Positions 18 to 4,866 of a stretch of 51,392 nucleotides of DNA are shown here, in pieces; the stretch's first letter is position 1, and each line of letters begins with the position of its first letter. A program made the position numbers and the translations under genes. The DNA is from Candidatus Pacearchaeota archaeon CG1_02_32_21 (GTDB taxonomy: Archaea; Nanobdellota; Nanobdellia; Pacearchaeales; GW2011-AR1), in contig MNVX01000036.1 of the NCBI GenBank assembly GCA_001872185.1, forward strand, positions 1 through 51,392, in the 5' to 3' direction. Below the pieces are notes generated by a model. That model ran no database searches, was not told the DNA's origin, and saw only the letters and a program-made list of their open reading frames with translations.

Positions 18-641
18 ATGAAGACAAATAAACTTTTGAAAAGTTTAACAAACCAGAGTCTTGATAAAAAAGGAGACTGGTTTGTTGAAGAGGTTGCTAA
101 AGTTATACTTGCTATAGTTTTGCTTTTTCTTTTAGGATATCTTGCTTTTACTCTTTATGAAGCTATAACTCAGAAATCTCAGTTAGAGCAGGCAAAGGTT
201 CATTTGGATAATATTGAAAATATAATTAATGATTTGAATGAAGGGGAGGAAGGAGAGTATATTTTGTTGTCTCCAAGTGGCTGGGCATTATACGGATTTC
301 CATATGGAGAGTATAATATTGGCAAGTGCCAAATATCTGGCAAACCTTGTTTATGCTTATGCCCTGAAACTAAAGTATATTCATGGCAGCATAGAAGTGA
401 GCTATTTGGTCAAGATATTCCTTCCCAGGATGAAATTTACAAGAAATTTAGTGAAAGCTGTCAAAGCAGTTCTGTATGCAAACTAAGTGATGTAGGAGAT
501 ATAACTGTTGAACGCAGTTCACAAGAAGATTCTCTTACGTCTGAAGATTCTATTGGAATTGACGGATTAATTAAATCTAAGAGCAGGATAGTTATTACTA
601 AAAGAGATAATAAATTATTTATAACTGACAGAAATGAATAA
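18..641 (+). CDS. pilin-like protein with class III (prepilin-type) signal peptide
   Basis: N-terminus MKTNKLLKSLTNQSLDKKG|DWFVEEVAKVILAIVLLFLLGYLAF: basic stretch, Gly, then a ~22-residue hydrophobic helix. First of 8 co-directional, tightly packed ORFs. Its 5' 30 nt are identical to those of the ORF at 1901. Confidence 0.55.
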   Translation: MKTNKLLKSLTNQSLDKKGDWFVEEVAKVILAIVLLFLLGYLAFTLYEAITQKSQLEQAKVHLDNIENIINDLNEGEEGEYILLSPSGWALYGFPYGEYNIGKCQISGKPCLCLCPETKVYSWQHRSELFGQDIPSQDEIYKKFSESCQSSSVCKLSDVGDITVERSSQEDSLTSEDSIGIDGLIKSKSRIVITKRDNKLFITDRNE

Positions 642-759
642 AAAAGCTGAAATTGAAGTTAAGCAACTTGCAAAAATAGTACTTTGGTTAGCGATATTTG
701 GGATACTTGCGTATGGAATTTATTATTTTTTTAACAAATTTATTCTTTTAGGCGCATAA
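634..759 (+). CDS. small membrane protein, 41 aa (below ORF-track cutoff)
   Basis: ATG at 634 overlaps the upstream stop by 8 nt. Translation MNKKAEIEVKQLAKIVLWLAIFGILAYGIYYFFNKFILLGA has one TM helix after a basic N-terminus. Confidence 0.35.
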   Translation: MNKKAEIEVKQLAKIVLWLAIFGILAYGIYYFFNKFILLGA

Positions 760-792
760 TATAAAAACTCATAATTCTATATCTTTATTGCC

Positions 793-1899
793 ATGAAAAA
801 AAGAGGATTTACACCTGTTGCAGAGATCGTATTAATAATTTTAGTCTTAGTTGGATTTGGAATACTTATTCTTGCAGCTACTAATTTTTTTACTAAAACT
901 GATATAGATAAAAATACCTGTCATTTTTCTGTTATTTCCAGAGGAAGTACTCCTTCTTTAGCAAAGGGTTATGTTCCTTTAAGATGTAAAACTGAGAAAA
1001 TTTGCATTACTGGGGAGATTATTGGAGGAAGTTGTGACGAATTTGAAGGAGAGAAAGGGATTACGAAAGTTAGGGTTTCCAATAGCCCTGTGCAGGGTTT
1101 AGATCAAGTTCAAAAAGTTTATGCGCAGTCTATGCTGGAGTGCTGGGAAATGATGGGCCAGGGCAAGGTAAGTTTGTTTTCTCAAGGAGCTGCAGAGAAC
1201 TTTGGATTGGGTTTAGTGTACCCCAGCTGTGTTGTTTGCTCAAGAATTGCAATTGATGAAGATTCTTTGTCTAACGTGCCTTTTGATAATATGAATATAA
1301 ATGAATATATGAAAACTCACTTATATTCTAAAACTGAAAAAACTTATTTTGATTATATGCTTGGTGAGGAGTATGCAGCAAGTTATAGTGTTGCTGATAA
1401 TTTACTTAATTTACCTGATTTTGATGTGAAAAAAGATAAAGGGGGTAAGGATATTGATTTAGTTAAAAAAGATCAAGATACTTCTGTTGAACTTGTTGAT
1501 CCGTCTATAATAAGCACAAGCAGAGAAGATGATTTGAAAGAAACTGCAATTATGTTTATGCAGATAAGCTCTCCAAGCCATGGAGGAGTTATTTCAAATT
1601 CTGTAGGAGCTGCTGCTGGAATTGGAACTGCAGGTTATTTTTCATTTGGCCCTGCTTTCTTAGCTGCTGGTAGCAAAACTATCAAAGGTCTTTTTTCAGT
1701 TCCTGGCGCAGTAATTGCAGGAATCTTGGGAATTTCTCAACAAGGAGCTGTTACAGCCAGCAGGGGAGTTAGTGCAGGATATTGTGGAGATGTAGAAATT
1801 TCAGATGATGCCAGAAGTGGATGCTCTGCTGTTAGAACTGTGAATTACGACTTAACTTCTATTTCAGAATACTGTCAAGTAATTGAAGGGCTTCCATAA
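793..1899 (+). CDS. pilin-like protein (KKRG|FTPVAEIV prepilin-like N-terminus) with Gly/Ala-rich hydrophobic C-terminal region
   Basis: MKKRG|FTPVAEIVLIILVLVGFGILILAA resembles a prepilin cleavage motif. The C-terminal part carries GAAAGIGTAGYFSFGPAFLAAG...GAVIAGILGI segments. Confidence 0.55.
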   Translation: MKKRGFTPVAEIVLIILVLVGFGILILAATNFFTKTDIDKNTCHFSVISRGSTPSLAKGYVPLRCKTEKICITGEIIGGSCDEFEGEKGITKVRVSNSPVQGLDQVQKVYAQSMLECWEMMGQGKVSLFSQGAAENFGLGLVYPSCVVCSRIAIDEDSLSNVPFDNMNINEYMKTHLYSKTEKTYFDYMLGEEYAASYSVADNLLNLPDFDVKKDKGGKDIDLVKKDQDTSVELVDPSIISTSREDDLKETAIMFMQISSPSHGGVISNSVGAAAGIGTAGYFSFGPAFLAAGSKTIKGLFSVPGAVIAGILGISQQGAVTASRGVSAGYCGDVEISDDARSGCSAVRTVNYDLTSISEYCQVIEGLP

Positions 1900-1900
1900 A

Positions 1901-2338
1901 ATGAAAAAAAATAAACTTTTGAAAAGTTTAACAAACCATAACCTAAACAAAAAAGGAAATATTCCTTTAGAAGAGGTTATTTTTGTTCTACTCAACATAA
2001 TGTTTTTCTCAATGCTTTTTGTTTTTGTTTACAATACAAGCCATGGAGTATTTTTATCTGAAAAACTTTATGCTAAAAAAATTGCTTTAGCTATTGACAG
2101 TGCTAAGCCTGGGACTCAAATAAGTGTAGATATAAGCGAATTGTATGGGATAGCTCAGGAAAACGAGTTTGACATAAGCGACTCTTTTTATTTTAAAGAT
2201 AATCAGGTTAATGTTAAACTTTCCAAGGAAGATGGCTATTCTTATAATTATTTTACAAATTACCAAGTTGAATCTGTTATAAGCTTTCCAGAAGAAGACC
2301 AAGCAATCCTTAACATAAAAGTGAGGCCAAATGATTAA
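1901..2338 (+). CDS. pilin-like protein, paralog of the 18..641 product
   Basis: The track ORF starts at TTG 1883; ATG 1901 lies 1 nt after the upstream stop. N-terminus MKKNKLLKSLTNHNLNKKG|NIPLEEVIFVLLNIMFFSMLFVFVY. Confidence 0.55.
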   Translation: MKKNKLLKSLTNHNLNKKGNIPLEEVIFVLLNIMFFSMLFVFVYNTSHGVFLSEKLYAKKIALAIDSAKPGTQISVDISELYGIAQENEFDISDSFYFKDNQVNVKLSKEDGYSYNYFTNYQVESVISFPEEDQAILNIKVRPND

Positions 2339-3465: not shown

Positions 3466-3468
3466 AAA

Positions 3469-3497
3469 GGAATCGAGCCTAATGGCTCAAAGGTTCC
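3469..3497 (+). promoter_or_regulatory. intercistronic GC-rich nested stem-loop
   Basis: GGAA-tc-GAGCC-taat-GGCTC-aaagg-TTCC lies 4 nt after the stop at 3465 and 19 nt before ATG 3516, in otherwise AT-rich spacer. Confidence 0.3.
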
Positions 3498-3515
3498 CAA
3501 AGCGAGGAATGAAAA

Positions 3516-4040
3516 ATGATAGGAAAAAATAAAAAAGCACAGTCATTGGCAAATTTTTTGCTTGTATTTTTAACACTATCTATTGTAGCAACCAGTTTAA
3601 TTTATATTGCAATTAAGGAAAATAATTATAGCGGTGAATTTGATTCTCCTTATGCTTTAGACTCTGTTTATTCCAGAGAAGAAATTATTAATTTTTATCT
3701 TCAGGATATTTTTGAACATGCGGCTTTAGGGGTTAAAGATAAGCAAGAACTAATAAACAATATTACTTTACTTGCAGGAAAATACAAAATTGCTTCAGGA
3801 TATGTAAAGAATTCAGAAGGTGAAGATGTTTTGGCTGATGAAAATGTTGCTGTTGTTTTGGCAAGTATTGAAAACCTGAAAGAAGAAGATATTGAGCTTG
3901 TCATTAAAAATAATAAAACCGAAAGGATTAAAATAAACTTTGACGTCAGTGTTAATTATAATCGGGGTTCAGATTATGTGAAATATAGATATAATAAAGG
4001 CTTTGAAACTTACGTATCTGATTTAGAATTAGAATCATAA
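3516..4040 (+). CDS. pilin-like protein (class III signal peptide)
   Basis: MIGKNKKA|QSLANFLLVFLTLSIVATSLIYIAI. Confidence 0.5.
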   Translation: MIGKNKKAQSLANFLLVFLTLSIVATSLIYIAIKENNYSGEFDSPYALDSVYSREEIINFYLQDIFEHAALGVKDKQELINNITLLAGKYKIASGYVKNSEGEDVLADENVAVVLASIENLKEEDIELVIKNNKTERIKINFDVSVNYNRGSDYVKYRYNKGFETYVSDLELES

Positions 4041-4083
4041 AAGTGAAGAAAACTTTATAAAGAGGTTTTATGTTTATAGTATA

Positions 4084-4866
4084 ATGATGGGTGCTAAAGG
4101 AAAAAGAGGTCAAGAAGGAGAGCCTAAAAGCTTTCTTATAGGAGGGATTATAGGAGCTCTTTTTTTAATAATTATTGTTATAGCTTTTTTGTATTGGTCA
4201 GATTGGGGTTCTCAAGTTTTGGGAACTAATACACCAGAGGACTTAGATATTAAATATAAAAGCTGTAAAGTTTCTTATAATACTCAAGGTGGAACTTTTA
4301 GAAATAGCTTTTGCGAAAAATTTGATAGTGTTGGAGGATCTTTATTTTCTGGAAGTAAAAACTATATAAGCTGCCAGTATAGGCCTATGATAGAAAGATT
4401 ATATAATGATGAAGATAATATTATCAATGCAGCTACACTAACTGCTGCTGCTGAAGAGGTCAATAAGTTTTGTGCTACAAGTACTGTTAGTGGAGCAGAG
4501 AATGGAGATGAGTTAGTGTTTTCTAGTAGTTTTTGTAATGTTCAGAAAATAGGCAACGCCAGATTTGATGGAATTTGGGCAAATGGATTTGTATTTGATA
4601 AAGATTGTAAGGTTACAACATACCCTGACTGGTATGAACAACCTGAAAAACCATTGAGTGATTTTGTGAATGATAACGGAAGAATTTCAATAGAAGCTTT
4701 CACAAGTGGTGGAACATATAAGCTTGCTGGAGTAGATGGAATAATCACTGGAAATTCTCAAGCTTCTACTTTTGTTCCAAATAATGGATCTAATGGAGTT
4801 GACATTACTCAGGAAAATATAGTAAGATTAGAAGCTGTTGGTAGTAGTATTATGCCCCGTATTTAA
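4084..4866 (+). CDS. pilin-like protein (class III signal peptide)
   Basis: MMGAKGKRG|QEGEPKSFLIGGIIGALFLIIIVIAFLY. A TATA-like CTTTATAAAG sits about 27 nt upstream of the ATG. Confidence 0.5.
   Translation: MMGAKGKRGQEGEPKSFLIGGIIGALFLIIIVIAFLYWSDWGSQVLGTNTPEDLDIKYKSCKVSYNTQGGTFRNSFCEKFDSVGGSLFSGSKNYISCQYRPMIERLYNDEDNIINAATLTAAAEEVNKFCATSTVSGAENGDELVFSSSFCNVQKIGNARFDGIWANGFVFDKDCKVTTYPDWYEQPEKPLSDFVNDNGRISIEAFTSGGTYKLAGVDGIITGNSQASTFVPNNGSNGVDITQENIVRLEAVGSSIMPRI

Follow-up and report, generated by a model that had tools for sequence, protein, structure and literature searches.

The stretch of DNA analysed here raises the question of which machine is served by eight consecutive genes whose products all begin like archaeal prepilins. 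The stretch (the window) is the entire 51,392-bp contig C33 of a 676-kb, 40-contig Pacearchaeota (DPANN) assembly, a genome that is 93.65% complete with a G+C content of ~32%. The eight open reading frames (ORFs), O1 to O8, all lie on the + strand at 18–4866, with junctions of −17 to +50 nucleotides (nt). O1–O8 are probably the subunits of a type IV filament (T4F) machine particular to DPANN archaea of the Pacearchaeota/Woesearchaeota type, which are abundant, uncultivated, thought to be attached to other cells, and poorly defined with respect to their pilus genes. The block reads as follows, a slash marking the predicted cut site and aa standing for amino acids.

2–16, + strand: 3′ end (ENLK and stop) of a preceding pilin-like gene, homologue of the 373-aa gene of the related locus L005 (nucleotide comparison with L005 9002–9020, TGAAAACGTAAATTAAAATG versus TGAAAATCTTAAATAAAATG)
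18–641, + strand: O1, prepilin-like, 207 aa; 19-aa leader MKTNKLLKSLTNQSLDKKG, then DWFVEE; Glu at +5; six Cys in the mature part
634–759, + strand: O2, tiny pilin-like, 41 aa; MNKKA/EIEV; mature part of 36 aa with one helix
793–1899, + strand: O3, Cys-rich prepilin-like, 368 aa; MKKRG/FTPV; ten invariant Cys
1901–2338, + strand: O4, prepilin-like, 145 aa; leader MKKNKLLKSLTNHNLNKKG, then NIPLEE; long leader as in O1
2331/2340–2840, + strand: O5, prepilin-like, 166–169 aa; MNKRG/EKLFSIWWF; four invariant Cys
2824–3465, + strand: O6, prepilin-like, 213 aa; NRKG/QFGDFLSW; Q at +1 invariant
3516–4040, + strand: O7, prepilin-like, 174 aa; NKKA/QSLANFLL
4084–4866, + strand: O8, prepilin-like, 260 aa; GKRG/QEGEPKSF; six Cys; fast-evolving end of the block

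Since bases 2–16 belong to the homologue of the 373-aa gene, forming its 3′ end, the contig break falls within this preceding pilin-like gene, inside the operon. The true start of O4 is ATG 1901, not TTG 1883, and that of O6 is ATG 2824, not GTG 2782.

The original prediction, made from the window alone, held that every ORF of the block begins with a short basic segment, a Gly or Ala and then a hydrophobic helix, and all eight do carry a basic leader ending in K or R and then G or A, followed by an uncharged or hydrophobic helix of ~20 residues. From O1 to O8, the cut sites read DKKG/DWFVEE, NKKA/EIEV, KKRG/FTPV, NKKG/NIPLEE, NKRG/EKLF, NRKG/QFGD, NKKA/QSLA and GKRG/QEGE. Class III signals were detected with a crude home-made motif filter and with alignments built without that filter. 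The filter flagged 8/8 of O1–O8 and 29/533 control ORF segments (each of 100 aa or more, taken from related loci outside blocks of this kind), so the observation is real and far from chance, and the stretch 18–4866 is strongly enriched in class III-type N-termini. Across the whole genome, 46 ORFs were flagged, several of which are Sec-like. The O3 family has the filter-free MAFFT consensus MxxKKG and the O4 family MxxxNKKG, and in ten unrelated families from ~80 species position −3 is K, position −2 is K or R, and position −1 is G, A or rarely S; as judged from these alignments, the motif is conserved and no artefact of the filter. Glu occupies position +5 in 33 of the 68 O1-family members, and the genome's weak Pilin_N match (23 bits, just under the cut-off) is a protein with the same site, MNKKG/VSDV. 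Direct reading of the translations revealed no AxA-type site after the helix in any of the eight proteins, which, at the level of sequence, carry the class III signal peptide of T4F subunits.

The context of the block was examined in related loci. In the protein database, 58 homologues of O3 were found; relatives of O3 occur in at least 123 species-level genomes, and 80 loci were retrieved. In L005, the genes run in the order 750-aa T2SSE ATPase, 733-aa polytopic membrane protein, 55-aa pilin-like protein, 373-aa pilin-like protein and O1–O8, after which come a 39-aa basic ORF, an AI-2E transporter gene (opposite strand), the A24 peptidase gene and a HIT-like gene (opposite strand). The same locus frame recurs in a relative with 36% identity, on a contig of 575 kb. 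Both the ATPase and the membrane protein are encoded upstream in 36 of the 40 loci, out of the 80 species loci, that have at least 8 kb of upstream sequence, with the ATPase directly upstream of the block in 37 of the 40, and an A24 peptidase is encoded downstream in 48 of the 52 loci with at least 7 kb on that side. The suggestion that an assembly ATPase and a platform protein may lie upstream of the window is thus borne out in relatives, and in this genome the two genes (751 aa and 733 aa) are found on contig C17. The idea of a pilin block was to be given up if prediction tools classed the N-termini as ordinary Sec signal peptides or uncleaved anchors and neither gene existed anywhere in the genome, which turned out to encode platform genes, a pair of secretion ATPases and a single A24 peptidase. 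The peptidase gene lies within the window.

6347–7252, + strand: A24 class III signal (prepilin) peptidase; PF01478 3.1e-14, FlaK model 2e-12; Asp motifs DFKKKEIPN and GGDAKL

This peptidase, a T4F class III signal peptidase by its family, is the sole copy in the genome and lies 1.5 kb downstream of the block; only the A24 domain was detected in it, and an N-methyltransferase domain was not. The ATPase has a PF00437 match at C17:9412–9963, matches among structures in the PDB to afGspE (7e-30), CpaF (8e-21) and FlaI (3e-13), and matches to the NCBIfam models of FlaI (1e-35), TadA (2e-34), BasE (1e-20) and ComGA (3.9e-9, far below the cut-off). An N-terminal extension of ~200 aa and a C-terminal one of ~120 aa enlarge the protein, which in relatives typically has ~755 aa. 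A T4F secretion ATPase of the FlaI/PilB/TadA (VirB11-type) kind is therefore encoded with the subunits, here on another contig. On C17, between the ATPase and the platform genes (C17:7877–8846), lie a PIN-domain gene (Pfam 1.3e-7) and a gene for a 170-aa multi-pass membrane protein; in L005, the ATPase and platform genes are adjacent.

The membrane protein belongs to a family of ~730 aa with 63% mean column identity across orthologues. Pfam T2SSF (PF00482) matches 10 of 42 orthologues, at best with 2.6e-7 and at about residues 489–602, so that a platform protein of the PilC/GspF/ArlJ (T2SSF) family is recognised through the orthologues, and the sequences lead us to accept the 733-aa protein as a putative, divergent T2SSF-like platform protein. 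Sequence and profile searches of the PDB with it returned no match, and no internal repeat was detected in it. Directly downstream of the platform gene, C17:1–5281 (− strand) encodes a protein that has a Sec signal, exceeds 1760 aa and runs off the contig end, with RHS repeats, FG-GAP repeats and a TcdB_toxin_midN region; the gene is missing from that position in L005. In the pilus locus of a distant relative (L007:4569–7563), there are two Phage_lysozyme2 proteins (1e-26 and 9e-25); lysozyme-domain proteins were considered as a general part of the locus and rejected, being confined to L007 and L008 and having no KKG site.

Identity to L005 declines from the motor to the subunits: 90% for the ATPase, 88% for the platform, 78% for O3, 69% for O6, 67% for O4, 66% for O5, 60% for O7, 54% for O8 and 43% for O1. 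The original prediction had described the mature parts as unrelated to each other, representing distinct subunits instead of a single amplified pilin. This description holds, each ORF heading its own conserved family and an all-versus-all hhalign comparison of the soluble parts of the family profiles giving a probability below 2% for every pair. The mature parts of O1 to O8 contain 6, 0, 10, 0, 4, 0, 0 and 6 Cys; all of these counts are even, which fits extracellular disulfides. By phmmer, O1, O3, O4 and O5 are present in 70–84 of 84 loci (O1 in 70), and profile searches extended O6 and O7 to 75 of 80 loci. Iterative hidden Markov models for the O2, O8, 55-aa and 373-aa families drifted onto the common N-terminus, and the results of these searches were kept out of the orthologue counts. 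The order O1/O3-O4-O5-O6-O7 is kept in ~70 of 80 loci, with O1 on either side of O3, and the block between platform and peptidase comprises a median of 10 class III-type ORFs (range 5–12). The spread of the families is wide: of 401 genomes sampled from the phylum, each at least 90% complete, 227 have the O3 N-domain, the figure within its own family being 27 of 27, and the O4 profile matches 1025 representatives of 50%-identity clusters (E ≤ 1e-3), nearly all of 125–160 aa. Some O4-profile matches of 316–350 aa (e.g., P0065, P0077 and P0086) align over the first ~130 residues only, and these may be O4–O5 fusions or unsplit gene calls.

Two classes of tiny subunits are conserved between the platform gene and O4. 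The first (mature part of 44–51 aa, often ending in NLFRFG) directly follows the platform gene; it is not in this assembly and presumably falls in the gap. The second (31–36 aa) directly precedes O3 and includes O2, so that the 41-aa transmembrane peptide noted in passing at 634–759 proves to be a member of a conserved Flp-sized pilin class. Both classes occur together in 37 of 54 loci. The shaft pilins of the Flp/Tad and Epd types are of a size similar to both classes, and O2 is, from its sequence, a candidate for a Flp/Epd-sized major or core subunit. The Epd pilin has been described as having no globular head (PMC13705601).

Structure prediction is consistent with a pilin nature for O4. The model built from 58 sequences has a mean predicted local distance difference test score (pLDDT) of 90.5, with a poorly ordered leader (pLDDT 61–65), and consists of a helix at 23–67 (45 residues, kinked at 48) followed by six β-strands and a short helix. 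The predicted architecture is pilin-like, a long N-terminal helix with a β-sheet head. The O3 model is partly confident (mean pLDDT 64.8, the N-domain at 70–94). At residues 260–326 (window 1570–1770), O3 has a Gly/Ala-rich hydrophobic stretch, which is modelled as low-confidence helices, varies in length and is always present across the family; it could be a membrane hairpin. Three invariant Cys are found in the last 40 residues, and O3 may be a tip subunit or an adhesin.

The leaders of O1 and O4 tell a different story from the mature parts. An identical 30-nt segment occurs at window 26–55 and 1909–1938, within a 14-codon insertion in both leaders, so that these two leaders are related to each other, unlike the mature parts. 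The 14-codon module (MK.NKLLKSLTN..L) stops immediately ahead of the KKG codons, with the mature parts unaffected, as would be expected because a leader, if removed, is not constrained by the mature protein. Within the 30-nt segment, AAACTTTT-G-AAAAGTTT forms a perfect palindrome. In L005, the module is found solely on the upstream 373-aa gene and not on O1 or O4, and this assembly contains two copies only; a third copy, expected in the unassembled upstream gene, may be the cause of the contig break. The copying of the module onto O1 and O4 may be read as a further hint for the cut site. An assembly chimera was considered as an explanation of O1 and rejected, as both flanks of the repeated 30-mer agree with the L005 sequence at O1.

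The gene set, the motif, the synteny with ATPase, platform and peptidase genes and the pilin-like architecture of the O4 model are observations, from which we infer leader cleavage, filament assembly, a major subunit and a function along the following lines. Each precursor would enter the membrane via its N-terminal helix, and the neighbouring A24 peptidase would cleave it after K-[KR]-[GA]. The ~750-aa FlaI/TadA-family ATPase and the ~730-aa T2SSF-like platform would then extract the processed subunits from the membrane and polymerise them. The shaft would probably be formed by the tiny subunits, i.e., O2 (mature part of 36 aa) and the 45–50-aa class encoded right after the platform gene. O1, O3, O4, O5, O6, O7 and the variable O8 would be minor pilins, making up a priming or tip complex with lineage-specific, often disulfide-bonded heads. 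The filament would most likely be used for attachment to a partner cell or a surface, which is the most plausible function because of the lifestyle of the lineage and because pili have been reported on such cells (PMC9938205).

Several results weigh against a filament machine. Pfam and NCBIfam searches of O1–O8 returned no pilin family model or other meaningful match, a Pfam search of 58 O4 relatives likewise returned none, and the acidic residues between cut site and helix are unusual for archaeal pilins. Matches to PF07790 (Pilin_N) in the genome are weak, below the cut-off and restricted to contigs C29 and C25, and the eight proteins belong to none of the named pilin families (PF07790 or other Pfam/NCBIfam pilin or archaellin models). 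Foldseek searches of the PDB found no pilin and no significant match for the O4 model (best E 0.04, ribosomal protein uL6) and no fold match for the O3 model. In addition, the C-terminal-side stretch of O3 could be a second membrane anchor, which would be awkward for a filament subunit. As to the machinery, T2SSF did not match the platform copies of this genome and of L005 taken alone, and an hhalign comparison of the platform profile with the genome's single FlaJ-like sequences gave a low probability, pairing the same region (~489–602). No contig end overlaps the window start, so that the junction between C17 and C33 is unclosed and the link comes from synteny in relatives.

Some of these points would suit an alternative, still unlikely, in which the proteins are class III surface proteins that are processed by the A24 peptidase and never polymerised, forming either a membrane-proximal assembly anchored by the N-terminal helices, similar to the Sulfolobus bindosome, or a short pseudopilus similar to that of type II secretion systems (T2SS) for secretion or uptake. 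Such an assembly would be compatible with the many unrelated heads, with the lack of a single abundant-looking pilin within the window, with the ATPase also matching the bindosome BasE model and with the extra membrane segments that O3 may have; moreover, the order of ATPase, platform, small subunits and larger subunits is, from general knowledge, that of ComG-type and T2SS pseudopilin operons as well. However, Pfam and NCBIfam found no substrate-binding-protein domains in the eight proteins, and the block includes two conserved Flp-sized classes, as in the shaft-forming Tad/Epd pili. A search of the genome for the ComEC channel (PF03772) gave no match in spite of the high completeness, which would leave a ComG-like DNA-uptake route without its channel, and the locus does not qualify as a ComG-type DNA-uptake pseudopilus.

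A polymerised filament with its own motor, as preferred here, also has to be weighed against the assignment of the block to another motor. The genome contains a second, FlaI-like T4F locus at C8:495–6134 (− strand), with a 511-aa ATPase, two platform genes and two pilin-like genes, followed by archease. At least three further class III-type gene groups exist in the genome (C25:8965–11481, Cys-rich; C29:3909–4809; and the start of C30), and because the A24 peptidase is present in a single copy, all class III-type systems of the genome share it. That the block provides minor pilins to the C8 system (Epd/"system 1"-like) and not to the 751-aa ATPase system is highly improbable: the single peptidase has to serve all systems in any case, C8 has just two pilin-like genes of its own and neither machinery is physically joined to the window in this assembly, but in relatives it is the ~730-aa platform and the ~755-aa ATPase that adjoin the block, rather than a FlaI-like locus carrying a pair of platform genes. 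Equally little credit is due to the proposal that O1–O8 are unrelated membrane or secreted proteins, with ordinary Sec signals or signal anchors that stay uncleaved, and lie beside pilus genes by coincidence, which would accord with the missing pilin model matches, with the Sec-like proteins taken in elsewhere by the filter and with cleavage being read from sequence only, but an anchor needs no invariant basic-basic-G/A triplet before the helix such as is kept in ten families and ~80 species, the AxA-type site was not seen, the genes hold a fixed order beside the ATPase, the platform and the sole A24 peptidase, and the O4 model combines a pilin-like helix with a β-sheet.

If the block encodes the subunits of a filament with its own motor, its place among known systems has to be considered. 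Tad/Flp pili and the Epd pili of Methanococcus maripaludis combine a tiny headless major pilin with minor pilins of the TadE/F or EpdA-D type. The present locus resembles both in its Flp-sized subunits (mature parts of 31–36 and 44–51 aa), its CpaF/TadA-like ATPase, its A24-only peptidase and its several larger pilin-like proteins per operon. However, the tiny subunits have no Flp G/xxxxEY motif and there is one platform instead of TadB/C, so that the locus is not a Tad system, nor is it an Epd "system 1", since it has a single platform, the two-platform locus being the separate one on C8. In contrast to both, it encodes more of the larger unrelated subunits (six to ten). A fixed order of non-homologous pilin-like genes beside the motor is shared with the fimU-pilVWXY1E, gspGHIJK and comGC-GG operons of bacterial minor pilins or pseudopilins; a further resemblance is the Glu at +5 found in half of the O1 family, and O3, as the one large subunit, could sit at the tip as a cap in the manner of GspK or PilY1. 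These bacterial operons differ in that no sequence or detectable fold similarity to them exists, the cut site here is of the archaeal type and no N-methyltransferase domain was detected.

Archaeal T4F systems were reportedly classified by Makarova et al. in 2016. A further classification is that of Sivabalasarma & Albers 2026 (PMC13705601), a survey in which DPANN T4F loci were rarely ordered ("unordered"), with scattered pilins, and models were noted as possibly missing pilins. Compared with classified archaeal systems, the present locus has an extended ~750-aa ATPase, one ~730-aa platform barely recognised by Pfam, and about ten subunit families, none of which matches a pilin model. In contrast to the scattered pilins of the survey, the subunits adjoin the motor in 36 of 40 loci, which suggests that, at least in this lineage, subunits sit beside the motor; they may have been missed previously because their families are covered by no model. 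It is conceivable, although somewhat less than an even prospect, that the locus represents a distinct, ordered and hitherto unclassified archaeal T4F system, core to Pacearchaeales/Woesearchaeales, with an extended 750-aa ATPase, one 730-aa platform, a pair of Flp-sized shaft pilins and a tip complex whose six fixed members belong to new families, including the 10-Cys O3 head with a possible membrane-inserting hairpin, and serving as an organelle for partner contact in host-dependent cells. The locus yields candidates for antibodies, cryo-electron tomography, structural work and improved T4F detection models, and it offers a defined gene set, with the fast-evolving O1 and O8, in which to seek determinants of host specificity.

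Several minor features of the window remain to be listed. A GC-rich hairpin at 3469–3497 falls between O6 and O7, in the one spacer of the block that is of appreciable length. Between the block and the peptidase gene lies a further small ORF, which is found at the same position in 51 related loci, has no Pfam match and may be outside the pilus system.

4912–5031, + strand: very basic 39-aa ORF (MADDYGFSNRRKSKNDKRAKRRYN...), between the pilin block and the A24 peptidase

Farther along the window, at 29284–31221, a 646-aa protein without a Pfam match starts in a class III-like manner, the site lying at about residue 27, and is possibly a further substrate of the A24 peptidase.

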